A DNA stretch of 64,000 nucleotides from an uncultured bacterium (lineage in GTDB: Bacteria > Desulfobacterota > Deferrimicrobia > Deferrimicrobiales > Deferrimicrobiaceae). Below are positions 6,464-21,465 of the stretch, piece after piece. Every line of letters begins with the position of its first letter. Within the stretch, counting starts at the first letter, position 1. The position numbers and the translations under genes are program-made. The notes beneath the pieces are model-generated. The model ran no database searches and had not been told where the DNA came from. It saw only the letters and a program-made list of their open reading frames with translations. The stretch spans positions 2,703-66,702 of the forward strand of contig CAWHIM010000042.1 of assembly GCA_963829245.1 (NCBI GenBank), read 5' to 3'.

Positions 6464-6934
6464 TTATCTTTCGTCCCCGTGGCCGAAGAGGACCTTCAGG
6501 CGGCGGTGGAGTTCGTCGCGGACGGATCGGAACGCATTGAGGCGGGTTTCTTCTGTTCCGGTGACGCACGCCGGGTCGGGAAGCCCCCAGTGGACACGGT
6601 GCGCCTTCCCGAGGAATACGGGGCAGACCTCCTCGGCGCAGAGGGTGATCACGGCGTCGACGGACCCGGCGTCGATGGAATCCAGCCCCTTGGATCGGTG
6701 ACCTGAGATGTCGATGCCGATCTCCTTGAGGACCTGGATCGCCTGCGGGCGGACAGGGGAGGGGGACGATCCGGCGGAAGAGACCGTTACCCCTTGAGAA
6801 GCGAGAGAGCGGGCGATCCCCTCGGCCATCTGGCTCCTCGCGGAGTTGGCGACGCAAAGGAACAGGATGTGTCGCGGCCGTTTCGCCTGGAGTTCCGCGG
6901 CCTCGGTCCTCCAGTCCGCGGGTCGAGCACTCAT
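6464..6934 (-). CDS. arsC: arsenate reductase, LMW protein-tyrosine-phosphatase (thioredoxin-coupled) type
   Basis: P-loop CVANSARS plus downstream Cys residues; start MSARP overlaps the arsR stop (ATGA); the long upstream ORF extension is an artefact. Confidence 0.85.
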   Translation of the reverse strand: MSARPADWRTEAAELQAKRPRHILFLCVANSARSQMAEGIARSLASQGVTVSSAGSSPSPVRPQAIQVLKEIGIDISGHRSKGLDSIDAGSVDAVITLCAEEVCPVFLGKAHRVHWGLPDPACVTGTEETRLNAFRSVRDELHRRLKVLFGHGDER

Positions 6935-7332
6935 CGCTTTGCCGCCGGACGCCGCCGGCCGGGCAGGGTCATCTTTCGCTCGCAGATCGCCATTGGGCCG
7001 ATCGACCTCGCCATTGCCGCCCGCTCCCGGTCTTTCGCGACGACCGGATCGTCGTTCAGCCAACTCCGGAGGTTCCGCAGCATACGTGTGGCATACGGGG
7101 AGTCGTTCCCGCGGTCCAACGAATAGTGGACCCATTTCCTGTCCCGCCGGTCCTTGATGAGTCCCGCTGCCCGGAGCAGGAAGAGGTGCTTCGACACGGT
7201 GGACTGCCCGAGGGAGAGGATCGCGATGACCTGGCAGACGCACATCTCCCCGCCTTCGAGGATCTTGAGGATCCGGACCCGGGTAGGGTCCGCGACGGCC
7301 TTCAAAACGGTCTCGTAATCGCGCAGTCCCAT
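6931..7332 (-). CDS. arsR: ArsR/SmtB family metalloregulator
   Basis: wHTH with metal-binding-site-like EMCVCQV; first gene of the arsR-arsC pair. Confidence 0.85.
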   Translation of the reverse strand: MGLRDYETVLKAVADPTRVRILKILEGGEMCVCQVIAILSLGQSTVSKHLFLLRAAGLIKDRRDRKWVHYSLDRGNDSPYATRMLRNLRSWLNDDPVVAKDRERAAMARSIGPMAICERKMTLPGRRRPAAKR

Positions 7333-8073: not shown

Positions 8074-8358
8074 ATGGACAAGAAGACAAAAAGCGTTTCC
8101 TGCTGCGGACCGACGGGGAAAAGCTTCGCAGGCTGCCGGGTCGAATCCCTTATTGCGGTCGACGACCGTGGGCAGATGGTGCTTCCCAAGGACCTGCGGG
8201 TCAAGGCAAACATCAAGGGGGGCGACAAACTTGCTGTGATCACCTGGGAGAAGGAGGGGAAGGTGTGCTGCCTCTCGCTGATCAAGGCCGAGGAGTTCGG
8301 CGGAATGATCAAGGGACTGATCGGGCCGTTGATGGGTGACGTGCTCAAGAATATCTGA
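8074..8358 (+). CDS. AbrB/MazE/SpoVT-type DNA-binding protein with Cys-rich N-terminal extension (vicinal CC pairs)
   Basis: C-terminal swapped-hairpin motif DDRGQMVLPKDLRVKANIKGGDKLAV; N-terminus SCCGPTGKSFAGC plus a later VCC pair; GGGAGG RBS; ends 14 nt before arsM. Confidence 0.6.
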   Translation: MDKKTKSVSCCGPTGKSFAGCRVESLIAVDDRGQMVLPKDLRVKANIKGGDKLAVITWEKEGKVCCLSLIKAEEFGGMIKGLIGPLMGDVLKNI

Positions 8359-8371
8359 AGGAGGGATGGAG

Positions 8372-9199
8372 ATGAAAGCTGAAGATATTTTGAAATACGT
8401 GAGGGATCGATATGCCGGCATCGCGAAACAGGAAGGGTCCTGCTGCGGCCCATCCGCATGCTGCGGCGCCCCCGAGGCGGCGGAAGAAGCGAGTGGCCGG
8501 ATCGGTTATACGGAAGGGGAAATGAAATCGGCACCCCGGGAGTCCAACTTGGGACTCGGCTGCGGCAACCCGACAGCGCTTGCTTCCCTGCGGGCAGGGG
8601 AGACCGTTCTGGACCTGGGCTCGGGAGCGGGCTTCGACTGCTTCCTGGCGGCGGGACAGGTCGGTCACGGAGGGAAAGTCATTGGCGTCGACATGACCGC
8701 GGAGATGATTCAAAAGGCCCGCGAGAACGCCCGAAAGGGCAACCATGAAAACGTCGAATTCCGGTTGGGGGAGATCGAGCATCTGCCGGCTGCCAATGAC
8801 TCCGTGGACATCGTCATCTCCAACTGCGTCATCAACCTTTCTCCGGCCAAGGACAAGGTTTTCGCCGAGGCCTACCGGGTTCTCAAGCGGGGAGGCAGGG
8901 CAATGATCTCGGACATCGTCCTTTCCGGGGATCTGCCGGAAGCTGTTGCCGGTTCCCTGGCCGCTTATGCCGGATGCATCGCCGGGGCGATCCGGGAGGA
9001 AAAATACCTTTGCCTTATGGAAGCAGCGGGGTTCCAAGACGTCCATGTCGTCCAGGAGAGCCGATTTGAAATCGCGGAAATCGAGATTGACGCGTATGCC
9101 TCGAGCATTGCAGGGAATTTCAACATCCTTCCGGAAGCGGTCCGGGAAGCAGCCAGGTCAGTTTTGAGTGTGCAAGTCTTCGGGAGAAAGCCGTCGTAG
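8372..9199 (+). CDS. arsM: arsenite S-adenosylmethionine methyltransferase
   Basis: N-terminal Cys cluster CCGPSACCG, class I SAM-MTase motif LDLGSGAG, downstream conserved Cys residues; AAGGAGGG RBS. Confidence 0.85.
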   Translation: MKAEDILKYVRDRYAGIAKQEGSCCGPSACCGAPEAAEEASGRIGYTEGEMKSAPRESNLGLGCGNPTALASLRAGETVLDLGSGAGFDCFLAAGQVGHGGKVIGVDMTAEMIQKARENARKGNHENVEFRLGEIEHLPAANDSVDIVISNCVINLSPAKDKVFAEAYRVLKRGGRAMISDIVLSGDLPEAVAGSLAAYAGCIAGAIREEKYLCLMEAAGFQDVHVVQESRFEIAEIEIDAYASSIAGNFNILPEAVREAARSVLSVQVFGRKPS

Positions 9200-9622: not shown

Positions 9623-10521
9623 ATGGGCATCAACAGACGGAACTTCCTGAAGGTCGCGGGGGCGGCCGGCAGCATGCTGCTCGCGGGGGGGGCCAAGTCG
9701 GCCTGGACCGCGCAGACCCCGGGAGGAAGTGTCGAGTTCTACGGGATCCTCATCGATACGACCAAGTGCATCGGCTGCCGCGCTTGCGAGGAGGCGTGCA
9801 ACGCACAGAACAGTCTGCCCAAGCCGGAAGTTTCCTTTTCCAGCGAGAGCGTGTTCGAGAAGAAAAGGGAGACGACCCCGGACGCCTTCGTTGTCGTCAA
9901 TCGGTTCCCGAACGGGAAGAGCCCGGAGAAGCCGATCTTCGTCCGGAGACAGTGCATGCATTGCACCGAGCCTTCCTGCGCCTCGGCCTGCCTGTGCAAG
10001 GCGATGGAGAAGATGCCCGAAGGACCGACCGTCTACCACAAGGACCGCTGCATGGGATGCCGATATTGCATGATTTCGTGCCCCTTCGATATCCCGAAGT
10101 TCGAATACAACAGCCCTACCCCGTACGTGAAGAAGTGCATCGGATGCCCCGATCGCGTGGCGAAGGGTGAACAGACCGCGTGCGCGGAAGCCTGTCCCGA
10201 GGGTGCGACCCTGTTCGGAAAGCGGAGGGATCTGATCGAGGAAGCCAAGAAAAGGATCTACCAGAACCCGGAACGGTACTACCCGCACATCTACGGCGAA
10301 CATGAAGTCGGGGGAACGGGCTACATGTACCTCTCGGCCGTCCCGTTCGAAAAGTCGGCTTCCGGACCGACCTGGGGACGAAGAATTACCCGGAACTGAC
10401 GTCCGGATTCCTGTCCTCCGTTCCTCTCGTGGACATCCTCTGGCCGGCGGTCCTGTTCGGCTTCAGCTACCTCATTTCCGACAAGGAAGAAGACGGGAAG
10501 GAGAACAACCATGAAAAGTAA
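9623..10521 (+). CDS. Tat-secreted 4Fe-4S ferredoxin-type subunit (NrfC/HybA/DsrO-like), one frameshift near 10375
   Basis: RRNFLK twin-arginine signal, four Cys clusters; C-terminal TM anchor (..ILWPAVLFGFSYLISDKEE..) only in the +1 frame; ATGA-type overlap with next gene. Confidence 0.8.
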
Positions 10522-11818
10522 CATCAAGCCGATGCCCATCCCCGGCATGCCGGACGCGATGGACACGGGTACCCTGAAGGGGTTCCTGCGGTTCCTCTGG
10601 CAGGAGCTGAAACCAAAGGGGAAGGTCCTGACGCCGTTCAATATCATCACCGGGATCATCATCCTGGGCGGGATCATCCTCATCGGCATCCGGCTCGTCA
10701 AGGGGCTCGGCGCCGTGACGAACCTCTCCCAGACGTATCCCTGGGGGATCTGGATCGGCTTCGACGTCGTGACGGGCGTCGCCTTCGCCGGAGGCGCGTA
10801 CATCCTGACCTTTGCCGTACACATCCTGAAGGTCAAGAAGTACGAGCCGATCGTGCGGGCAACCGTGCTGAACGGTTTTCTGGCCTACGTCTTCTACAGC
10901 GGCGCCCTCCTGCTCGACCTGGGACGCCCCTGGAACGTCGTCAACCCCATCATCGGGAACGCCTTCGGGTACGGGTCGGTGCTCTTCCTGGTCGCCTGGC
11001 ATTTCCTCCTGTACACACTGTGCCTGTTCGTCGAGGTCTCCCCCGCGATCGCCGAGTGGCTGAAATGGGTCAAGGCGCGGCGGATCATCGAGAAGATGAC
11101 CACCGCCACCGTCATCCTGGGCGTGACGCTGTCGACGCTGCACCAGGCGGGGCTGGGCGCCTTGTTCCTCACGGCGCCATCCAAGATCCATCCCCTCTGG
11201 TACTCGAGCAACATCCCGGTCCTGTTCTTCATCTCGAGCATGTTCGCGGGGTTTTCGTTGATCATCATCGAGAGCATGTTCACGCACAAGATCTTCTCCG
11301 ACCGGCTCGACGAATCCCATCGGGCGTCGCACAACAAGATCCTCCTCGGCCTCGCGAAGGGGTCGGCCAGCGTCATGGCCGCCTACCTGTTCCTGAAAGT
11401 GATCGACCTGACGCACGGCCATCATCTGGGGTTGCTCCTCACCCCGATGGGGCTCTGGTATCTGGTCGAGGTCGCCGGGTTCACCCTGCTCCCTCTCGTT
11501 CTTTACGTCGTCGCCATCCGGCAGCAAAGCGTAAGGCTCGTCCAGATCACCGCGTTCCTCACGGCCTTCGGCGTGATCCTGAACCGGATGAACATCTCCG
11601 TGATCGCGTTCAAGTGGTACGAGGCGGTTCGGTATTACCCGTCCTGGATGGAGATCTGGATCACGCTCGCGGTCATCAGCATGGAACTCTGGGTGTTCCA
11701 GTGGGTCATCAACCGGATGCCGATCCTCGGAGCGGACCCGGCCTTCAAGTCGGAAGAGAAAACCGTAAACAACCTTAATGATGGGGAGGTAGTGCAATGG
11801 AAGGTTTCAGACACATAG
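10511..11818 (+). CDS. NrfD/PsrC/HybB-family polytopic membrane subunit
   Basis: 435 aa, ~10 TM helices, NrfD-family pattern; translationally coupled to the upstream FeS subunit. Confidence 0.85.
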   Translation: MKSNIKPMPIPGMPDAMDTGTLKGFLRFLWQELKPKGKVLTPFNIITGIIILGGIILIGIRLVKGLGAVTNLSQTYPWGIWIGFDVVTGVAFAGGAYILTFAVHILKVKKYEPIVRATVLNGFLAYVFYSGALLLDLGRPWNVVNPIIGNAFGYGSVLFLVAWHFLLYTLCLFVEVSPAIAEWLKWVKARRIIEKMTTATVILGVTLSTLHQAGLGALFLTAPSKIHPLWYSSNIPVLFFISSMFAGFSLIIIESMFTHKIFSDRLDESHRASHNKILLGLAKGSASVMAAYLFLKVIDLTHGHHLGLLLTPMGLWYLVEVAGFTLLPLVLYVVAIRQQSVRLVQITAFLTAFGVILNRMNISVIAFKWYEAVRYYPSWMEIWITLAVISMELWVFQWVINRMPILGADPAFKSEEKTVNNLNDGEVVQWKVSDT

Positions 11819-11939
11819 ACACTTACATGGGCAGGTCCCTTCGCCGAAAGTATTTAAGCTGGGCCCATGCAGGAGGATTGCCGTTTTTGCCGTCCGCAAC
11901 GCGATGATGGAAGGGGGCTTTCAAGTTTTCTTATATCGC

Positions 11940-12052
11940 CAATTCTCGAAACGGGCCACATGGCCGAGAGTGGGGCCATGGTCGCCATGCGGAAGTTTAC
12001 CGAGGATATAATGTCGAACCAACCGGCGAATGAAACCAATGATGGAGATTGA
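11940..12052 (+). pseudogene. 3' fragment of an AhpD-like carboxymuconolactone-decarboxylase-family gene (duplicate of the 13422-13631 3' end)
   Basis: ETGHMAESGAMVAMRKFTEDIMS matches ETGHMVEKGAMAAMRKFTDDVLS of the intact copy; the N-terminal part is absent. Confidence 0.5.
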
Positions 12053-12474: not shown

Positions 12475-12830
12475 GGCGTCCTCCCGCTACGTTGATCATA
12501 TCGCTCAAATAACGAATTGACATTATAGCGCGTCGGATAAATAATATCCACCAGCTTGAATTTGTATGAAACAGGAAACCGGGAGCAGGGAGGATCGGAA
12601 TGCGTTTGCGCCTGACCACTCGTCCTGGAATCCCGGAGATCCTCCGGGATTCCAATATGAAGCGGAAAGTGTGACCCGTGTCTTACAGGATTCTTGCGAT
12701 ATTCGCGCATCCAGACGATGAGACGTTCCTTGCCGGAGGAACCTTGACGAAGTATGCGGATGCCGGGTGGGAGGTGTCCGTGCTTTGCGCGACGCGCGGC
12801 GAGGCCGGACGGCGGGGAGAATACGGAAAG
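12371..12830. repeat. segmental duplication copy B (intact side)
   Basis: Pairs with 7456-7900. Confidence 0.6.
12493..12550 (+). promoter_or_regulatory. operator/promoter cassette copy 2 driving the PIG-L / AhpD-like genes
   Basis: tgatcatatcgctcaaataacgaattgacattatagcgcgtcggataaataatat; TTGACA at 12517-12522. Confidence 0.5.
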
Positions 12831-13385
12831 GATAATATTTCCGCCGGGGAATTCGCACTGGTACGACAGCGGGAGATGGAGGATGCCTGCCGTGTCCTCG
12901 GTGTGGGAAAACCGCTCTTCCTGAAATGCGCCGACGGGGGAGTCGCGAAGGATTGCCGGGACTCCGCGACGACGGAAATTGTCCGGTTCCTCCGCAAATG
13001 GAAGCCGGACGTGGTCATCACGTTCGGCCCGGATGGCGTCTCGGGCCACACCGATCACGTGGCGATCGGCGGGATCGCGACCGTTGCGGCACGGGAAGCC
13101 GGGGTCCGTTCCTTGTACTATGTGTTGCGGTCCGAATCGCTGTCGACGTGCTGCAAACCCGAGGTTCCGGTTTCATCTCCTCCCGTGACGACGGTGATCG
13201 ACGTGAGCGGTTTTGGAGAGCGCAAACTCCGGGCCATGCGCTGTTACAGAAGCCAGAAGCACCTGCTGTCGGAGGACCCGGCCGTGATCAGGGACACGGT
13301 AAACGGGCGGGAGCACTTCCACCGTGCGCTTCCGGCCGGATTCACCGCGGGACGCGAAGATCATCTGTTCGTTCCGTTTTCCTGA
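12678..13385 (+). CDS. PIG-L/LmbE family N-acetylglucosaminyl deacetylase (MshB/BshB-like)
   Basis: AHPDDE zinc-binding motif, HxDH motif (GHTDHVA); 235 aa intact. Confidence 0.8.
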   Translation: MSYRILAIFAHPDDETFLAGGTLTKYADAGWEVSVLCATRGEAGRRGEYGKDNISAGEFALVRQREMEDACRVLGVGKPLFLKCADGGVAKDCRDSATTEIVRFLRKWKPDVVITFGPDGVSGHTDHVAIGGIATVAAREAGVRSLYYVLRSESLSTCCKPEVPVSSPPVTTVIDVSGFGERKLRAMRCYRSQKHLLSEDPAVIRDTVNGREHFHRALPAGFTAGREDHLFVPFS

Positions 13386-13421
13386 GCGCAAGGAACAGAA
13401 CGGGAAAGGAAGGTAATACAT

Positions 13422-13631
13422 ATGGATGAACGCACCAAAGAACTGATCGCAATCGGCGCATCCGTGGGCGCCCACTGCCAGCCGTGCCTCACCTGGCATA
13501 TGAAGAAAGCGCGTGAACTGGGGATCGACGACGAGACGATCCGGGCCGCGATCGAAACGGGCCACATGGTCGAGAAAGGCGCCATGGCCGCCATGCGGAA
13601 GTTTACCGACGATGTCTTGTCCGGTAAATGA
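13422..13631 (+). CDS. carboxymuconolactone decarboxylase (AhpD-like) family protein with CxxC
   Basis: 69 aa; AhpD-core signature AHCQPCLTWH. Confidence 0.7.
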   Translation: MDERTKELIAIGASVGAHCQPCLTWHMKKARELGIDDETIRAAIETGHMVEKGAMAAMRKFTDDVLSGK

Positions 13632-13680
13632 CATATCGTCAAATAACGAATTGACAAATACGCATCGAAGGAACGATAAT
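13629..13680 (+). promoter_or_regulatory. operator/promoter cassette copy 3 upstream of arsD (TTGACA 13651-13656, GATAAT 13675-13680, 18-nt spacer)
   Basis: tgacatatcgtcaaataacgaattgacaaatacgcatcgaaggaacgataat; inverted repeat GTCAA-N8-TTGAC overlapping the -35. Confidence 0.55.
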
Positions 13681-13738
13681 ACGCTTTGCGTATATCTTAT
13701 GAGTACTTATCCGGATTCTCCGGGCAAGGAGGCAGATC

Positions 13739-14038
13739 TTGAGGAAGCTGGAAATCTACGAGCCGCCGTTGTGCTGTCCCACCGGGGTGTGCGGGCCGGC
13801 GCCCGATCCCGCCCTGGCGAAGCTCCAGGAGGACATCCTTCGGTGGAAGAAGGCGGGCGTCGTCGTCGAGCGGCTTGCGATCAACCAGGTCCCGCAGCGG
13901 TTCATGTCGAATCCGGCGGTGGTCGACCTGCTGACCCGCGAGGGGCAGGAGGTCCTGCCGATCGCCCTGCTCGACGGGAAAGTCGTCTGCAAGGGGAAAT
14001 ACCCGACGTACGACCAGGTCACCCGGGAGGGGATGTAG
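13739..14038 (+). CDS. arsD: arsenical metallochaperone/repressor ArsD
   Basis: PPLCCPTGVCG motif and ..LDGKVV..GKYPT ArsD fold; TTG start 6 nt after AGGAGG. Confidence 0.85.
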   Translation: MRKLEIYEPPLCCPTGVCGPAPDPALAKLQEDILRWKKAGVVVERLAINQVPQRFMSNPAVVDLLTREGQEVLPIALLDGKVVCKGKYPTYDQVTREGM

Positions 14039-14266
14039 ATGCCGACCTACGCATACCTGTGCCGCGCCTGCGGCCGTCCGTTCGAGATGCGGATGTCCAT
14101 CCGGGAGAAAGAACGTGGAAGCCCCGCTGTCCGGTGTGCGGCAGCGCGAAGGTGGAGCAGCAGCTCTTCGGCTTCTCCTTCGGTGGGGCGGGGGCGGAGC
14201 ACCCGCCCCGGGCGGGTGATGCCCCCCCGGCCGCGGCGGTCGCTGCGGGTGAAAAGCCGGTGGTGA
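14039..14266 (+). CDS. FmdB-family zinc-ribbon protein (frameshifted, end uncertain)
   Basis: MPTYAYLCRACGRPFEMRMSIREKE, then in the +1 frame ..CPVCGSAKVEQQLFGFSFGG; two CxxC knuckles typical of the FmdB zinc ribbon. Confidence 0.5.
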   Translation: MPTYAYLCRACGRPFEMRMSIREKERGSPAVRCAAARRWSSSSSASPSVGRGRSTRPGRVMPPRPRRSLRVKSRW

Positions 14267-14305
14267 GGACGGCGGATCCCGGATGGATGGGGGGTAAGGC
14301 GGTTC

Positions 14306-16168
14306 ATGCACAAATACACGTTCTTTTCCGGCAAGGGCGGGGTGGGAAAAACCACCCTTGCGGCGGCCACGGCCGTGCGCACGGCGCAGGCGGGGAAACG
14401 GACCCTGATCGTCTCCACGGACCCGGCCAGCAACCTGGCCGACGTCTTCGAACGCCCCATCGGGCCCCGGGTCACGGAGATCGCGCCGAACCTGTTCGCA
14501 CTCGAGATCGATCCGGATACCGCCACAAAGGAGTACGGGGAGCGCGCGCTGGCGCCCTTGCGCGCCGTGCTTCCTCCGGACGCCATGAAGGTTCTCGAGG
14601 AACAGTTCCGAAGCGCCTGCACGGTCGAGATCGCCTCGTTCGACCGGTTCACCGACTTTCTCGGCGATACGGAGTTCGACCACGTGGTCTTCGACACCGC
14701 GCCCACGGGTCACACGCTCCGACTGCTCGAGCTCCCGGTGGACTGGTCCCGCCATATCGAGGAAGCCGCGCAGGGGAACGGCCAGACGTGCATCGGGCCG
14801 GTCGCCTCCCTGCAGGGGGCAAAGGCGAAATACGACCACGCCATCGCCGCGCTCCGGGACCCCGGTGAGACGGAGTTCACGCTGGTCTGCCGTCCGGAGC
14901 GGACCTCCGTGGACGAGCTGCTCCGGGCCCGCGAAGAGCTGCGGATGCTCGGGATCGGAAACTTCCGGATCGTGGTGAACGGGGTGATCCCGGTCGGGGC
15001 GGGGGGGCCGTTCGCGAACCAGTCCTCTTCCCAGCGGGAGCAGGTCCGCCGTCTTTCCGGGAAGGATCGACCGACCCTGCATCGAGGTGCCCCTCCAGGC
15101 AGGGGAAGTGAAGGGGCTTTCCGCCCTGGGGCGGTTCGCCGCCATCGCCTTCGACGGAAAGGAAGATTCCCTCCACGACGGATTCACGGGAACCCGCGCC
15201 TACACGGGGTTTTCTCCTCCGTACGCCCTGAGGAGGATGGTGACCGGCGATGGTCGGAGCAGGACGGTCGTCCTGACCGGCAAGGGAGGGGTCGGGAAAA
15301 CCGTCGCTGCATGCGCCCTGGCGGCTCGCCTCGCGCGGGAGGGGAAACGGATCCTCCTGGCGACCACCGACCCGGCGGCCCACATCGGGTCGGTCCTTTC
15401 GGCGGAGGTGTCGAGCGAAGTGCGTCCCGTTCCGGACTACCCCGGGCTCTTCGCCGTCCGGATCGACCAGAAGGAGAGCGTCGAGGCGTACAAGGCGAAG
15501 ATCCTCTCCCAGGCGGCCGCGTCCGGCCACACCGGCGAGATGCTCGCCGTGGTGAAGGAGGAGCTGGAATCCCCCTGCACGGAGGAGATGGCGGTCTTCG
15601 AGGAGTTCTCCGGCCTGGTGGAGCGGGACGATTTCGACGTTGTGGTCCTCGACACCGCACCCACGGGGCACACCTTGCGGCTTCTCGAACTGCCGTACGA
15701 CTACGCCCGGCAGGTCGAGATGATGGTGGCCGTCCGGAAGGACGACGCCGGGGCGACCGGCGCCAAGGGGAAGCTCGACGCGCTCGTCCGTCGTCTGAAG
15801 GATCCCCGGGCGACGACCTTCCTCCTCGTGATCTACCCGGAATACACCCCGATCTTCGAGGCGAAACGGGCCGCGGAAGACCTGAAGGAGTCCGGCATCG
15901 AGGTGCAGGGCGTCATCGCCAATTTTATTCTCGAAGAGGACGACTGTTCGTCTCCGTTCTCCATGTCGCGATTCCTCATGCAGCAGCACTATCTCAAGGT
16001 GGCGGAGGAGACGTTCCGGCTGCCGATCTTCAAGGTGCCCATGCTGCCGTCGGAGCCCGCGGGCAAGGATGCCCTGGACCGGGTGGGCAGGGAGTTGCTC
16101 GGGAACGGAAAACATCGCATTCGCCGTTCCGGAAGCGGCGGCGGGAATCGAAGGAGGGGGCAACATGA
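14306..16168 (+). CDS. arsA: arsenite-transporting ATPase ArsA (two P-loop halves), with frameshift(s)
   Basis: Two GKGGVGKT Walker A motifs, DTAPTGHTLRLLELP signature in both halves, metalloid-binding Cys residues. Frame changes near 15060-15090; the 3' end near 16100-16168 is ambiguous. Confidence 0.8.
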   Translation: MHKYTFFSGKGGVGKTTLAAATAVRTAQAGKRTLIVSTDPASNLADVFERPIGPRVTEIAPNLFALEIDPDTATKEYGERALAPLRAVLPPDAMKVLEEQFRSACTVEIASFDRFTDFLGDTEFDHVVFDTAPTGHTLRLLELPVDWSRHIEEAAQGNGQTCIGPVASLQGAKAKYDHAIAALRDPGETEFTLVCRPERTSVDELLRAREELRMLGIGNFRIVVNGVIPVGAGGPFANQSSSQREQVRRLSGKDRPTLHRGAPPGRGSEGAFRPGAVRRHRLRRKGRFPPRRIHGNPRLHGVFSSVRPEEDGDRRWSEQDGRPDRQGRGRENRRCMRPGGSPRAGGETDPPGDHRPGGPHRVGPFGGGVERSASRSGLPRALRRPDRPEGERRGVQGEDPLPGGRVRPHRRDARRGEGGAGIPLHGGDGGLRGVLRPGGAGRFRRCGPRHRTHGAHLAASRTAVRLRPAGRDDGGRPEGRRRGDRRQGEARRARPSSEGSPGDDLPPRDLPGIHPDLRGETGRGRPEGVRHRGAGRHRQFYSRRGRLFVSVLHVAIPHAAALSQGGGGDVPAADLQGAHAAVGARGQGCPGPGGQGVARERKTSHSPFRKRRRESKEGAT

Positions 16169-16392
16169 ACGTGAAAGAGTTCGCGGAGCAGTTCAAGGCG
16201 CTTTCGAAGGAAGATCAGATGGCCGTGATCCGGCAGATCATGCCCGGGTTCTGCGAGAGCATGATGAGCGACCCGAAGGGGATCCTGGAGATGTTCTCCC
16301 TGATGACGGAGGAGTGCGGGGAGCCGATGGCGAACATGGTCTCCATGATGGGGATGATGATGGGCCGCAAGGGCGGGGGCTGCTGCGGATGA
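16165..16392 (+). CDS. small Met-rich protein ending in GGGCCG (putative metal(loid)-binding)
   Basis: 75 aa; strong AAGGAGG RBS; Met clusters MVSMMGMMMG and C-terminal vicinal Cys pair; between arsA and acr3. Confidence 0.5.
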   Translation: MNVKEFAEQFKALSKEDQMAVIRQIMPGFCESMMSDPKGILEMFSLMTEECGEPMANMVSMMGMMMGRKGGGCCG

Positions 16393-16407
16393 GCGGTTCT
16401 CCGTCCT

Positions 16408-17487
<1,080 letters not shown>

Positions 17488-17508
17488 GGGGCAAGAAGAA
17501 AAGCCGGC

Positions 17509-18604
17509 GTGCTGTTCCGGGGCGGGGGGTGCGGGGAGACCGCGGTCGACGTCGCCTCCGCCATCCCGTCGCCCGGCGCGCAGGCCGGGGCGTGGCGGTA
17601 CCTCCTCGCCGGCGGGCTCCTTCTCGCGGCCTGGTGGGCGCTCTACCTCAGCCTGCCGCCGTTTTCGGTGGTTCACGTATTCACTGTTTCCGCTCGCTCC
17701 CGACACGCGGCTCGGCACGGCTGTCGAGTTCTTCGTCTACGATGGTCCCAAGGTCCTCCTCCTCCTTACCCTCGTGGTCTTCGGCGTGGGCATCGTGCGC
17801 TCTTACTTCACCCCGGAGCGGGCCCGGAGGATCCTCGCGGGGAAACGGGAGGCGGTTGGGAACGTGATGGCGGCCCTCCTTGGCATCGTAACGCCCTTCT
17901 GTTCCTGCTCGGCGGTGCCGCTGTTCATCGGGTTCGTCACCTCGGGCGTCCCGCTCGGCGTGACGTTCTCCTTCCTCGTGTCCGCGCCGATGGTCAACGA
18001 AATCGCGCTGGTCCTTCTCTTCGGCCTGTTCGGCTGGAAGATCGCCGCGCTCTATCTCGGGACGGGGCTCGTGATCGCGATGGTGTCCGGCTGGGTGATC
18101 GGGCGTCTCGGGATGGAGCGGTACGTCGAGGAGTGGGTCTACGCGATCCCCTCCGGCGGGGACGGCGCACCTGGGGAGGAGCGTCTCTCGTTGCGCGACC
18201 GGGTCCGGTACGGCTTCGACGCCGTCCGGGACATCGTCGGAAAGGTGTGGCCGTACGTGCTGGCCGGGATCGGGGTGGGGGCGGCGATCCACGGGTACGT
18301 GCCGGAGAACTTCATGGCCGGGATCATGGGGGCGCAGGCCTGGTGGTCGGTCCCGCTGGCGGTCCTGATCGGCATCCCGATGTATTCGAACGCCGCGGGG
18401 ATCATCCCCATCGTTCAGGCGCTTCTCGGCAAGGGGGCGGCGCTCGGCACGGTGCTCGCCTTCATGATGTCGGTGATCGGGCTCTCGTTCCCCGAGATGG
18501 TCATCCTGCGGAAGGTGCTGAAAGTCCGCCTGATCGCGACCTTCGCGGCCGTGGTGGGGATCGGAATCCTCCTCGTCGGCTACCTGTTCAACCTGGTCGT
18601 ATAA
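17509..18604 (+). CDS. arsP: ArsP (DUF318) organoarsenical efflux permease, N-terminal frameshift, start uncertain
   Basis: Conserved TPFCSCS and MVNEIALVLLFG motifs; N-terminal helix (..WRYLLAGGLLLAAWWALYLS..) is in another frame. Confidence 0.7.
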
Positions 18605-18630: not shown

Positions 18631-19069
18631 TCAGACGTCGAGAACGACGATGGCGTGCCATCCATCGGGGGTCCTCTCGACCACGAGACGGTGCAGGGTC
18701 ACCGCCTTGACGTCCGCGAGGAGGCAGTGCCTGTCGGGATCGATCGTCTCGCCGATCGCCTCAGCGTGGAGGCGATACCCCGATCCGGCCTCCTCGATCC
18801 GCAGATCGCGTACCCGCAGCAGGAGCCGCTCGGCGTCCTTGTAGATAGACGAGCTCCTGAAGGAGCTCGAAGAGGAGGAGGTCGAGGGCATCGGCGGCAA
18901 TGGAGATCTCTCGATGCTCCCTTGGAGCGACCGTCCCGATCTCCTCCACCATCGTGTTCAGCGTCGCGTCGGCCGCGGCGAGAAACGTCTCCTCCTTTGT
19001 TGCGCCCCACGCCTCGAACGCCACGTCCGCCGTGGCGATCTCTCCGAGGTATCGGTACGGCGAGGTCAT
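18631..19069 (-). CDS. archease (RtcB activator), one frameshift
   Basis: N-terminus MTSPYRYLGEIATADVAFEAWG.. and C-terminus ..YRLHAEAIGE..HRLVVERTPDGWHAIVVLDV lie in two frames; ATGA overlap with the rtcB stop. Confidence 0.7.
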
Positions 19070-20524
19070 CCCTTCACGTTGCCCACCGGGAGCAGGCGGA
19101 CCACCCGCCGGCTGAGCCCCGCGCGCTCCGTGGCCGAGACGACGTCGTCGACGTTCTTGTAGGCGGGGCCCGCCTCCTCGGCGAGGCCGGACCAGCTCGC
19201 CGTCCGTACGTAGATCCCCCGTGCCTCCATCTGCTCCTGGAGCTGGCGCCCGCGGTACCGTTTTCTGGCCGCCGTCCGGCTCATCGCCCGCCCGCTGCCG
19301 TGCGCGGTGGTGAAAAACGTGCAATCGCCGGTGTCGACTCCCGCCAGCAGGTACGATCCGGTCTCCATGCTTCCGCCGAGGATCACCGGCTGGCCCGTCT
19401 TCCGATAGATATCGGGAAGCCCCGGCATCCCGGGACCGAACGCCCGGGTCGCCCCCTTCCGGTGGACGAGCAGTTCCCGCGGTTTCCCCTCGAAGACGTG
19501 CCTCTCGAGCTTGGCCGTGTTGTGCGAGACGTCGTAGACCTGGCGCATCCCGAGGTCCTTCGGATCTTTCCCGAACACCTCGGAGAATACCTCGCGGATC
19601 CGGTGGAGGATGACCTGCCGGTTGGCGAAGGACATGTTGACGGCGCACTTCATCGCGGCGAAGTAGTCCTGCCCCTCAGGAGAGAGGAAAGGGGCGCACG
19701 CCAGCTCCCGATCGGGGACATGGATGCCGTACTTGCCCCGCATCGCCGCGACGAAGACCCGGAGGTAATCGGTCGCCACCTGATGGCCGAACCCCCGGCT
19801 GCCGCAGTGGAACATCACGACCACCTGGTCGGGGAGGACGATGCCGAAGATTCCCGCGGTTTCCCGATCGAATACGTTTTCGGCCCTGGCGACCTGGATC
19901 TCCAGGTAGTGGTTTCCCGACCCCAAGGTGCCGATCTGCCGGTACCCCCGGTCGACCGCTTTCTCGCTCACCCGCGATGCGTCGGCGCCGGGAAGGCACC
20001 CCCCTTCCTCGGTGCGCTCGAGATCCTCCTTCCAGCCGATACCCGCGCTTCACCGCCCACCGGGCCCCCTGTTCCACGGCATCGCGGAACTCGTCCCGGG
20101 AGAGCCGTACGGTTCCCTCGGCGCCCACGCCGGCGGGAACGCGCCCGGCCACGCGGTCCACGAGGTTCCGGAGGCGCGGCTGGACCTCCCCGTACGTCAG
20201 GTTCGTGAGGCAGAGCCGCATCCCGCAGTTGATGTCGAAGCCGATTCCGCCGGGGGAGATCACCCCGTGATCGGGGTCCATCGCGGCGAGGCCGCCGATG
20301 GGGAAACCGTATCCCCAGTGGCCATCGGGCATGCAGCAGGCGTACCCCACGATGCCGGGGAGGGTGGCGACGTTCGTGATCTGTTCGAAGACGCCGTCGT
20401 CGAACTCCGAAAGGAGCGGCTCCGTGGCGAAGATGCGGGCCGGTACGAGCATTCCCGCCTTGTGGGAGACGGGGATCTCCCAGACCGTATCGGAAATCCG
20501 CCGGATATCCTTCGGCACGGTCAC
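19066..20524 (-). CDS. rtcB: RNA-splicing ligase RtcB, frameshift(s) between ~19680-19970
   Basis: RtcB motifs (..GYACCMPDGHWGYGFPIGG.., ..GSRGFGHQVATDYL.., ..HNTAKLE..); GTG start after GGGGGAGG. Confidence 0.8.
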
Positions 20525-20571
20525 GGCGCGCCTCCCCCCGTCGGTATCTCCCTTGATTATATCGCGAGGCG

Positions 20572-21465
20572 TTACGCGACGGGTTCCCTCCGCAGCAGCT
20601 CCTTCCCGACCCAGTGGCCGGCGAACTGGTAAGCGATGCGGCCGCTCCGGTCCCCCTTCCGCTGGGACCACAGGATCGCCTCGTCCCGCGCGTCCTTGGT
20701 CCACGGGAGGCGTGCGCCGTGTTTTTCGCACATCTTCTCCACCCAGCGCCGGACCACCTCGACGTACAGGTCCTGCGAGAACGGGTGGAAGGCGACCCAG
20801 ATTCCGAACCGTCCCGAGAGGGAGATCTTCTCCTCCACGGCCTCCCCGTGGTGGATCTCCCCATCTGCCATCATCGCGCCGCGGTTGTCGCTCTCGTACT
20901 CGGGGACCAGGTGCCTTCGGTTGGAGGTCACATAGATCAGGACGTTTTCCGGCGGCGCGTACACCGAGCCGTCGAGGGCGCTCTTCAGCATCTTGTAGCT
21001 CGACTCCCCCGTTTCGAAGGAGAGGTCGTCGGAGAAGAGGAGGAATTTGTAGGGGAGCCCCTTCACTTCGTCCACGATGGAGGGAAGGTGGACGAGGTCG
21101 TCCTTGTCCACCTGTATGATCCGAAGCCCCCGGGGGGCGTACGCATGGAGGAGCGCCCGCACGAGCGACGATTTCCCGGTGCCGCGCGAACCCCAAAGGA
21201 GGATGTTGTTCGCGGGGAGGCCGGCGAGGAATTGCCGGGTGTTCTCCTCCACCACCCTTTTCTGGTCCTCGATGCCGAGCAGATCCTCCAGGTGAAGGTT
21301 CTCGACGTCTCCGATCGGCTCGAGGTACCCCGAGAAGGAGCGCTTCCGCCAGTTCGCGGCGACGCACTCCTCCCAGTCGATCCGGGGCACGGGGCGCGGC
21401 AGCAACGTCTCAAGGGAGGAAAGCACCCGTTTCAGCTGCGCGGTCAGTTCCGGGTCCAGTTCCAT
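20572..21465 (-). CDS. DUF815-type P-loop ATPase
   Basis: Walker A GSRGTGKSS; AAGGAGAT RBS; directly upstream of rtcB. Confidence 0.7.
   Translation of the reverse strand: MELDPELTAQLKRVLSSLETLLPRPVPRIDWEECVAANWRKRSFSGYLEPIGDVENLHLEDLLGIEDQKRVVEENTRQFLAGLPANNILLWGSRGTGKSSLVRALLHAYAPRGLRIIQVDKDDLVHLPSIVDEVKGLPYKFLLFSDDLSFETGESSYKMLKSALDGSVYAPPENVLIYVTSNRRHLVPEYESDNRGAMMADGEIHHGEAVEEKISLSGRFGIWVAFHPFSQDLYVEVVRRWVEKMCEKHGARLPWTKDARDEAILWSQRKGDRSGRIAYQFAGHWVGKELLRREPVA

Follow-up and report, generated by a model that had tools for sequence, protein, structure and literature searches.

The 64,000-nucleotide stretch of DNA analyzed here (the window; contig CAWHIM010000042.1, from an uncultured Deferrimicrobiaceae bacterium) carries, between the arsenic-resistance genes arsA and acr3, a small open reading frame (ORF) that we call gene X. 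Gene X is a real, conserved gene under selection, and comparison of its homologues identifies its product as an undescribed protein family with a fixed slot in the arsenic-resistance (ars) operons of an uncultured lineage. We tentatively favor a role for this protein as a cytosolic carrier or buffer of As(III) that would feed Acr3 and/or ArsA by way of a C-terminal thiol arm, a reading to which we give slightly less than even weight. A second small gene of the same operon, Z, likely encodes an unannotated selenoprotein and is probably the ancestral partner of X.

Gene X occupies positions 16165 to 16392 of the + strand, the place and strand at which an earlier sequence-only reading of this DNA had put a 75-residue ORF, and terminates at a TGA codon (16390-16392). 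Its acidic, Met-rich product (pI 4.8) begins MNVKEF, ends MVSMMGMMMGRKGGGCCG, contains the peptides EFAEQFK and GILEMFSLMTEECGEPMANMVSMMGMMMGR, and reads in full MNVKEFAEQFKALSKEDQMAVIRQIMPGFCESMMSDPKGILEMFSLMTEECGEPMANMVSMMGMMMGRKGGGCCG. ORFs arise readily by chance in DNA this rich in GC, 72 of at least 40 residues overlapping a 10-kb stretch, and so the open frame by itself proves nothing. The case for the gene is instead made by its codon usage, its homologues, its translation signal, and the selection acting on it. GC content at the three codon positions is 49/37/93% (GC3 = 93%), and a search of 5.8 billion proteins recovered 135 homologues, almost all of 73-78 residues, with E-values as low as 1e-38 and sequence identity falling to about 50%. 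The ribosome-binding site GAAGGAGGGGG (16150..16160, +) has its GGAGG core at 16153-16157, 7 nucleotides 5′ of the ATG, and GGAGG or GGAGGNG recurs at equal spacing before X in all 16 loci inspected, bearing out the earlier description of a good site. The median pairwise ratio of nonsynonymous to synonymous substitution rates (dN/dS) is 0.39, with dS depressed by extreme codon bias. X is also intact end to end in the window, unlike its frameshifted neighbors. Two competing frames were rejected: an ORF on the opposite strand (16215-16595), and a 107-residue, upstream-extended form of X (16069-16392) whose extension is the C-terminal tail of ArsA, brought in frame by indels in the window.

The composition and conservation of the protein center on its sulfur-containing residues. 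Methionine accounts for 14 of the 75 residues (18.7%, against a family mean of 16% and a range of 16-19%) and occurs in MxxM and MMxMMM runs, whereas there are only four cysteines (5%). Across an alignment of 58 sequences, C30, M65, G71, C73, and C74 are invariant, and C51, Q18, R23, P27, F29, M33, M43, M55, N57, M58, M62, G63, M66, and G75 are conserved in at least 90% of members. The internal cysteines thus comprise the invariant C30, embedded in MPxFC, and the nearly invariant C51, embedded in ECG, while the vicinal pair C73-C74 resides in the terminal GGGCCG arm (residues 70-75; 16372..16389, +), as had been noted from the sequence alone. The terminus RKGGGCCG is found in 94 of 161 homologue sequences, and the variants retain CC. 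No selenocysteine (Sec) variant, with TGA in place of the C73 or C74 codon, was found among 58 distinct genes, although four of these genes end CC-TGA-TGA, with a stop in place of the final Gly codon.

An AlphaFold2 model built with the family alignment predicts helices at residues 3-12, 15-35, 37-51, and 53-68, followed by a disordered tail. The mean predicted local distance difference test score (pLDDT) is 81, exceeding 90 over the first 30 residues and falling below 50 at residues 70-72. The protein lacks a transmembrane-grade hydrophobic segment and a signal-like N-terminus (maximum 19-residue Kyte-Doolittle score 0.47), which, together with the predicted fold, fits a soluble domain carrying a mobile arm.

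Neither the sequence nor the model matches a known family. At E ≤ 10, the Pfam scan returned only DUF6511 (0.012) and Etd1 (0.3), both sub-threshold and unrelated, and the NCBIfam scan only a sub-threshold match to SRP54; the best hit of a family profile against PDB sequences has E = 0.16, and Foldseek matched the model to no PDB structure. Among 1.84 billion cluster representatives, an exhaustive profile search found 33 proteins at E ≤ 1e-3, and the gene is present in 13 of 185,579 species genomes, all of them metagenome-assembled genomes (MAGs) labeled “Deltaproteobacteria bacterium” or Candidatus Deferrimicrobiaceae save one labeled Actinomycetota. X is therefore almost confined to MAGs of the MBNT15/Deferrimicrobia type. 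No description of it was found in the literature on small Met-rich ars proteins, zinc ribbons of ars operons, or arsenic genes of Deferrimicrobia, and the MBNT15 genome paper names arsD, arsR, arsC, arsA, and ACR3, with the X ORF not among them. The earlier suggestion that the protein is undescribed is thereby upheld.

The genomic setting of X was assessed in 65 non-redundant genes pooled from exact-protein look-ups, species genomes, and a metagenome scan. Of the 55 loci that extend at least 400 nucleotides downstream, 51 have a full acr3 as the next gene in the same orientation; the other four have an acr3 remnant (two) or something else (two). Upstream, among 58 loci with sequence, X is preceded by arsA in 44, by an arsA remnant in three, and by a divergent arsR in four. 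The order arsR-X-acr3-arsP, with neither arsD nor arsA, is seen at L009, L017, L081, and L082. Since a full acr3 nearly always follows and X occurs without arsA or arsD, the closest genomic partner of X is acr3, not arsA. The proposal that X is embedded in an arsD-arsA-acr3-arsP operon consequently holds as regards the flanking genes and shifts in emphasis toward the carrier. Overall, ars genes are the immediate neighbors of X in more than 90% of loci, and its position is conserved in ars clusters across diverged genomes, as expected of an ars operon component; the conservation in related ars operons that the sequence-only reading looked for is strong, so that its account is partly supported, with the ars context and the conservation holding up. 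Three proteins in which the N-terminus of ArsD or a piece of ArsA is joined to the C-terminal third of X (P0127, P0135, and P0136) were not used as evidence of fusion, since their parts seem to have been joined by deletion or misassembly where the two share short motifs.

The arrangement of start and stop codons suggests that X is co-translated with both neighbors. At its upstream end, X shares an ATGA stop/start overlap with arsA in 42 of 56 loci, and the stop of X overlaps the start of acr3 as ATGA in 35 of 58 distinct genes and as GTGA in a further three (38/58 together). The latter overlap lies at 16389..16392 (+) in the window, where a +1 indel about 17 nucleotides past it shifts acr3 to a GTG at 16408. 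Two clades of Acr3 follow X, in 39 and 12 loci, that are mutually only ~31% identical, and yet the X proteins accompanying them are 92-95% identical to one another, which argues against a tightly co-evolved docking interface. The second of these clades has its own ribosome-binding site 40 nucleotides downstream, and X is still kept upstream of it.

Gene Z (14039..14252, +) lies between arsD and arsA and encodes a zinc ribbon of the FmdB family. The sequence-only reading had reported an FmdB-type ORF at 14039-14266; its start and family assignment stand, but its end is an artifact of two 1-nucleotide indels in the window copy, and the homologous gene stops at 14252. Two CxxC knuckles, about 17 residues apart, start at the initiator Met (MPTYAYLCRACG...RCPVCGS). 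As the window copy is frameshifted, family membership was scored on the orthologue at L001, which, with its TGA read through as Cys, matches TIGR02605 at 52.9 bits against a cut-off of 31.3. The distinctive feature of Z is its tail, ...APAPGG-[UGA]-CPPGRGGRCG-stop, in which the in-frame TGA (14217..14219, +), a candidate Sec codon, aligns with the Cys codons TGC or TGT of homologues.

Several observations point to Z as a likely unannotated selenoprotein whose tail would carry a Sec-Cys pair. The codon in question is TGA, never TAA or TAG, in the window and 17 other loci (L001:3882-4097, L004:3901-, L011:3876-, L035, L039, L040, L044, L052, L055, L057, L059, L062-L064, L076, L080, and L084), and TGC or TGT in five, and the ten conserved in-frame codons that follow the TGA (...PAPGG-[U/C]-CPPGRGG[R/C]CG-stop) match the tail of the Cys form. 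Protein databases hold 56 short Z clusters (≤62 residues), ~50 of which terminate at ...PAPGG or something very close to it; in the other 15, which are full-length, the TGA position is Cys or, in four, Phe. None of these 71 informative clusters is annotated as a selenoprotein, and gene callers truncate ~50 of them.

Downstream of the TGA is a hairpin resembling a selenocysteine insertion sequence (SECIS), CCGCGGC-GGUC-GCUGCGG (14231..14248, +). It begins 11 nucleotides after the UGA and has a 7-bp stem (nucleotides 15-21/26-32, counted from the U of UGA) capped by an apical loop of G22, G23, U24, and C25, in agreement with the geometry of the E. coli element, in which the hairpin lies ~11 nucleotides past the UGA and G23/U24 occupy the apical loop (PMC8659212); a bulged U17 is absent from the Z hairpin. 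The fold-energy z-scores of the hairpin are not significant in this GC-rich context, and support for it therefore comes from conservation at synonymous sites: the hairpin is nearly invariant in all 18 TGA forms, synonymous sites included, while the 11-nucleotide spacer varies in eight of the 18. Such changes as occur keep pairing (C18U, C27U, and G19A), save one extra mismatch in L044. Loop position C25 varies in three of the five Cys forms, and its constraint in the TGA forms explains why GGRCG, never GGCCG, is found in these. Scanning positions 13000-17000 against Rfam by E-value for SECIS or other RNA elements gave chance-level matches only, and ARAGORN, used to seek a tRNA-Sec, detected not a single tRNA gene in the 64 kb of the window. 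The FmdB family (TIGR02605) already includes selenoproteins (GOS study, PMC2398784; review, PMC13188914), but the listed forms carry Sec inside the zinc knuckle, as CxxU or UxxU, whereas in Z the CxxC knuckles are intact and the TGA falls in a Gly/Pro tail (GG-U-C-PPGRGGRCG) of an ars-linked gene. This tail Sec-Cys form thus appears to be unlisted.

Distant relatives of X, detected by profile search, connect the two genes. These proteins of 64-81 residues share an LSxE[ED]Q...[IL]MPxFC...CG...M-rich architecture and are found mostly in ars-type loci (with arsR, arsC, acr3, arsP, or an ArsD-like gene) of other anaerobes. Their C-termini vary, comprising GHKGC[KQ], GHKGCCG, tails without Cys (P0130, P0131, and P0141), and CCSSGTCC; that some relatives lack the CC tail makes the Met-rich helical domain the conserved part of the family. 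Members of the GHKGC clade are encoded directly upstream of the gene for a 64-69-residue FmdB-like zinc ribbon whose tail is rich in Cys (GGCCGSGGGCCG, GCGGHCGNAHGCC), at L022, L023, L086, and L088 and, in tandem, twice at L087, usually near a divergent arsR and acr3, arsC, thioredoxin, or DsbD. Two other clades display the order X, ArsD-like protein (CGPxxxCC, 109-116 residues), zinc ribbon, with arsR, arsP, arsC, or acr3 in the locus. In Deferrimicrobia, the zinc ribbon lies between arsD and arsA in 24 of the 40 loci with enough upstream sequence. As X and Z recur together across diverged clades, they are probably a recurrent, ancestral gene pair that was later separated by arsA.

Other features of these relatives can be recorded here. 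The 109-116-residue proteins that separate the X relative from the zinc ribbon (L025:3425-3754 and L028:2729-3079) have no Pfam match on record and carry FPCGPxxxCC, an ArsD-like Cys triad, near the N-terminus, in loci without arsA. The tandem duplicate of the X-like and zinc-ribbon-like pair at L087 (4282-4751 and 5001-5464) is followed by a hexapeptide-repeat transferase and a 4HBT thioesterase, both of which recur in L023 and L086, with the 4HBT gene alone in L022. Proteins of the Desulfurispirillum type with the tail CCSSGTCC (P0150 and P0151) are assigned to the X family tentatively (E ~7e-4 to 8e-4). One such gene, from Desulfurispirillum indicum reads (L020/L021:6001-6243), is convergent with an SBF-family carrier gene; this species is a cultured respirer of arsenate and selenate and could offer an experimental entry point.

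How might X act? As(III) is bound by three thiolates, and sites composed of a CC pair plus a third Cys have arisen repeatedly, in ArsD (C12, C13, and C18) and in several types of ArsR; in MerA and thioredoxin reductase, C-terminal CC or CU arms serve as carriers of soft metals or electrons. X may accordingly be an auxiliary of ArsD-ArsA-Acr3 efflux that binds As(III)/Sb(III), a “swinging-arm” chaperone or buffer. The thiolates of its arm, together with C30 and/or C51 or with a Cys or Sec of a partner, would capture As(III) in an S3 or S2Se site, and ligand exchange would then move the metalloid on to Acr3, at its conserved Cys (APCTAMV), or to the Cys site of ArsA. Candidate acceptors are in place: the window retains the CCx4C of ArsD and the APCTAMV of Acr3, as well as three Cys contexts in ArsA (SACTVEI, QTCIGP, and SPCTEEM), all of which we take to be the metalloid sites of these proteins. 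The near-identity of X beside divergent Acr3 clades would suit a carrier for which no co-evolved interface is required. Metalloid binding, hand-off, and any physical contact among these proteins are our inferences.

The putative partner would be the product of Z, whose Gly/Pro arm bears Sec-Cys...Cys. Conceivably, X and the Sec/Cys-tailed Z form a two-protein thiol/selenol relay of swinging arms, not recognized before, that captures As(III) and brings it to Acr3 and, where arsA lies between the two genes, also links the ArsA ATPase to this carrier, which otherwise works independently of an ATPase. We regard this fuller scheme as possible but doubtful; if true, the relay would provide the first dedicated accessory proteins of Acr3 and a selenoprotein dedicated to arsenite efflux.

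A number of points weigh against the proposed carrier. Thioethers are not known to be ligands of As(III), and the extreme Met content of X is for that reason not explained by As(III) chemistry. ArsD is present in most X loci, making a second chaperone seem redundant. Some distant relatives lack the CC tail (P0130, P0131, P0141, and P0186), a few having a single Cys, so that the core function is perhaps not thiol ligation of As(III). The linkage to arsenic genes also has exceptions, in that X stands alone between a response regulator gene and fabI in one complete MAG (L013; CP070783), and the P0167 and P0181 loci have no ars genes within 5 kb. Finally, all carriers of X are uncultured MAGs or metagenome contigs.

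The alternative that survives best, although we consider it unlikely, is that X is a structural adaptor or regulatory subunit that binds Acr3 (and ArsA when present) and either couples ATPase to carrier or gates Acr3. Its Met-rich helices would then provide a plastic docking surface, and its cysteines would sense As(III) or redox state rather than carry the metalloid. The ATGA coupling at both ends of X is in keeping with such a role, as is the observation that X always stays on the acr3 side when arsA is lost (nothing but remnants of arsA being left in L007, L012, and L068). There is precedent for this kind of subunit in YbdD, a small CC-ended protein needed with CstA for pyruvate uptake (PMC5847655), and in CstX, proposed as a linker of ArsA-like ATPases and CstA; whether and how ArsA drives Acr3 is itself unsettled (PMC2963123). 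An adaptor would not, however, be expected to remain 92-95% identical beside Acr3 clades that are ~31% identical, to occur without arsA, to have relatives with arsP or no carrier nearby, or to lack a membrane-binding segment. It is the missing signature of a co-evolved X-Acr3 interface that places the adaptor second to the thiol-arm carrier.

More unlikely still, in our estimation, is a thiol/selenol redox relay, in which a vicinal disulfide of X and the Sec-containing Z would work with thioredoxin, DsbD, a CMD protein, or ArsC to keep the thiols of the transporter or ArsA reduced, or to reduce As(V) or organoarsenicals, with no carrying of As(III). A terminal arm of the GCCG/GCUG type is the redox arm of thioredoxin reductase, Z has a candidate Sec-Cys pair, and the loci of the relatives are rich in Thioredoxin_3, Thioredoxin_2, DsbD_TM, CMD/AhpD-like, Glrx, and LMWPc genes. 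X itself, however, has neither a thioredoxin-like fold nor a CxxC motif, the Deferrimicrobia genes sit between arsA and acr3, away from redox genes, and some relatives do without the CC tail altogether.

It is very improbable that the product of X is irrelevant, the gene being either a coupling or leader ORF that delivers ribosomes to acr3 or a lineage-specific hitchhiker. The ATGA overlap with acr3 in most loci and the narrow range of the family described above would suit this explanation, but it does not account for Cys, Met, and Gly positions that are invariant across members only 50% identical, for a confidently predicted fold, for the retention of X ahead of the Acr3 clade with a ribosome-binding site of its own, or for homologues in other gene orders. 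Equally improbable is that X serves soft metals such as Cu(I), Ag(I), Hg(II), or Cd(II) and is linked to ars genes only secondarily, for although Met-rich motifs such as those of X are typical Cu(I)/Ag(I) ligands and SCO1 and a multicopper oxidase are encoded a few kb away in L022, X is adjoined by ars genes almost throughout, the regulators are of the ArsR type and lie beside arsC and acr3, the copper proteins known to carry Met motifs are periplasmic while X lacks a signal peptide, and the Pfam scan of X gave no match to HMA, CusF, or CopC.

The remaining ars genes of the window were identified by tblastn with proteins of a homologous locus and by Pfam. All four of the genes arrayed around Z and X are on the + strand: arsD (13739..14038; 99 residues, with the CCx4C motif LCCPTGVC; PF06953, E = 8e-31), the two-domain ATPase gene arsA (14306..16168; ArsA_ATPase matches in both halves), the SBF/Acr3 arsenite carrier gene acr3 (16389..17487), and the ArsP_1 permease gene arsP (17490..18604; PF03773, E = 4e-73), whose start is approximate, its N-terminal region being frameshifted. 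The divergent, regulatory end of the ars island (6485..7332) lies 6.4 kb upstream on the opposite strand and consists of arsR (6931-7332, -) and arsC (6485-6934, -), the latter of the low-molecular-weight protein-tyrosine phosphatase type. Roughly ten frameshifts relative to homologues fall within 4.5 kb (about 14100-18000), among them two in the zinc ribbon, two in arsA (near 15085 and 16115), three in acr3 (near 16405, 16729, and 17434), and two in the N-terminal part of arsP. The same sort of break is found in related MAGs from a long-read survey (L010), and the frameshifts are therefore most simply read as indel errors of long-read assembly rather than as signs of pseudogenes. ORFs of 590 and 620 residues in the window are artifacts of these frameshifts.

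Five genes lie between arsR/arsC and arsD. These encode an ArsM-like methyltransferase (8336-9199) with SCCGPSACCG, as read from its translation; a 4Fe-4S protein with a twin-arginine-like leader (9623-10399); an NrfD-type membrane subunit (10511-11818); a PIG-L deacetylase (12678-13385); and a 69-residue CMD/AhpD-like CxxC protein (13422-13631) that weakly matches NCBIfam families containing selenoproteins (the GSU3128 family; ArsM/AhpD). A second CMD-like stretch (11867-12052), checked for UxxC, is a truncated fragment of the C-terminal half only (...LETGHMAESGAMVAMRKFTEDIM), apparently a remnant, with nothing interpretable. Beyond arsP, translations from 18761-21367 (-) resemble, by eye, archease and then the RNA ligase RtcB, the latter split by a frameshift.

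The list of genes found in ars operons is still growing, and X is a candidate accessory or chaperone to be added to it. As a single additional gene of 228 nucleotides, coupled translationally to arsA and acr3, X offers a concrete and testable candidate for a part in bringing cytosolic As(III) to Acr3, the most widespread arsenite carrier. Correcting the truncation of Z, in turn, would extend the FmdB selenoproteins by a form with Sec in its tail and would connect the use of selenium in anaerobes with the detoxification of arsenic.

Among known systems, ArsD (PF06953) offers the closest functional parallel. Like X, it is a small cytosolic ars protein with a vicinal Cys-Cys, encoded by a gene near arsA, and it binds As(III) with that pair plus a third Cys and hands it on; the two proteins are also co-located in most loci. 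ArsD, however, has a thioredoxin-like fold and an N-terminal CCx4C, whereas X is predicted to be all-helical and is Met-rich, with CC at its extreme C-terminus, and X tracks acr3 more closely than arsA, unlike ArsD. X accordingly falls outside the ArsD family, showing no PF06953 match in Pfam at E ≤ 10 and an all-helical AlphaFold2 model. In MerA and thioredoxin reductase, a Gly-flanked terminal Cys/Sec arm (GCUG or GCCG in the reductase) delivers a soft metal or electrons to a buried site, but these arms belong to large flavoenzymes, whereas X is a stand-alone 8-kDa protein without a cofactor domain. X does not resemble the metallothioneins either, for its 5% Cys compares with a typical >15-30% in CxC/CxxC clusters and it is predicted to form a helical bundle, and the absence of a Pfam match and of a signal peptide sets it apart from Met-motif proteins for Cu(I)/Ag(I) such as CusF and CopC/PcoC.

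In architecture, X resembles the DUF466 proteins YbdD and YjiX, which are likewise cytosolic and ~65-75 residues long, with a C-terminal vicinal Cys pair and a gene beside that of a secondary carrier. YbdD/YjiX proteins end Arg-Cys-Cys-COOH, or Lys-Cys-Sec-COOH in Campylobacter, and accompany the CstA/BtsT carriers (Haft preprint), and transport by CstA depends on YbdD (PMC5847655). The resemblance is one of architecture only, a terminal Cys pair and an adjacent carrier, as the Pfam scan of X at E ≤ 10 returned no such family and X, unlike YbdD/YjiX, is encoded upstream of its carrier in an arsenic setting, has CCG at its end, and is rich in Met. CstX is similarly a small auxiliary protein in a trio with an ArsA-type ATPase and a secondary carrier, which it has been proposed to couple (Castillo and Saier, 2010; PMC2963123), but by its description, the basis of this comparison in place of a CstX sequence, it has ~90 residues, one transmembrane segment, and a part in carbon starvation. 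SaoC (NF040734) ends CC or CU, and its gene adjoins those of transporters in a putative heavy-metal system; the protein has been called “dark matter,” without homologues outside its own gene neighborhood (Haft preprint). At ~158 residues, with a signal or lipoprotein peptide, SaoC is extracytoplasmic, whereas X has 75 residues, no hydrophobic N-terminus, and no NF040734 match in NCBIfam at E ≤ 10. X would thus work most like ArsD while resembling YbdD/YjiX and SaoC in architecture and belonging, by sequence, to none of these families, and it is a further case of a pattern seen repeatedly, in which a small protein with a terminal CC or CU arm is encoded beside a transporter.

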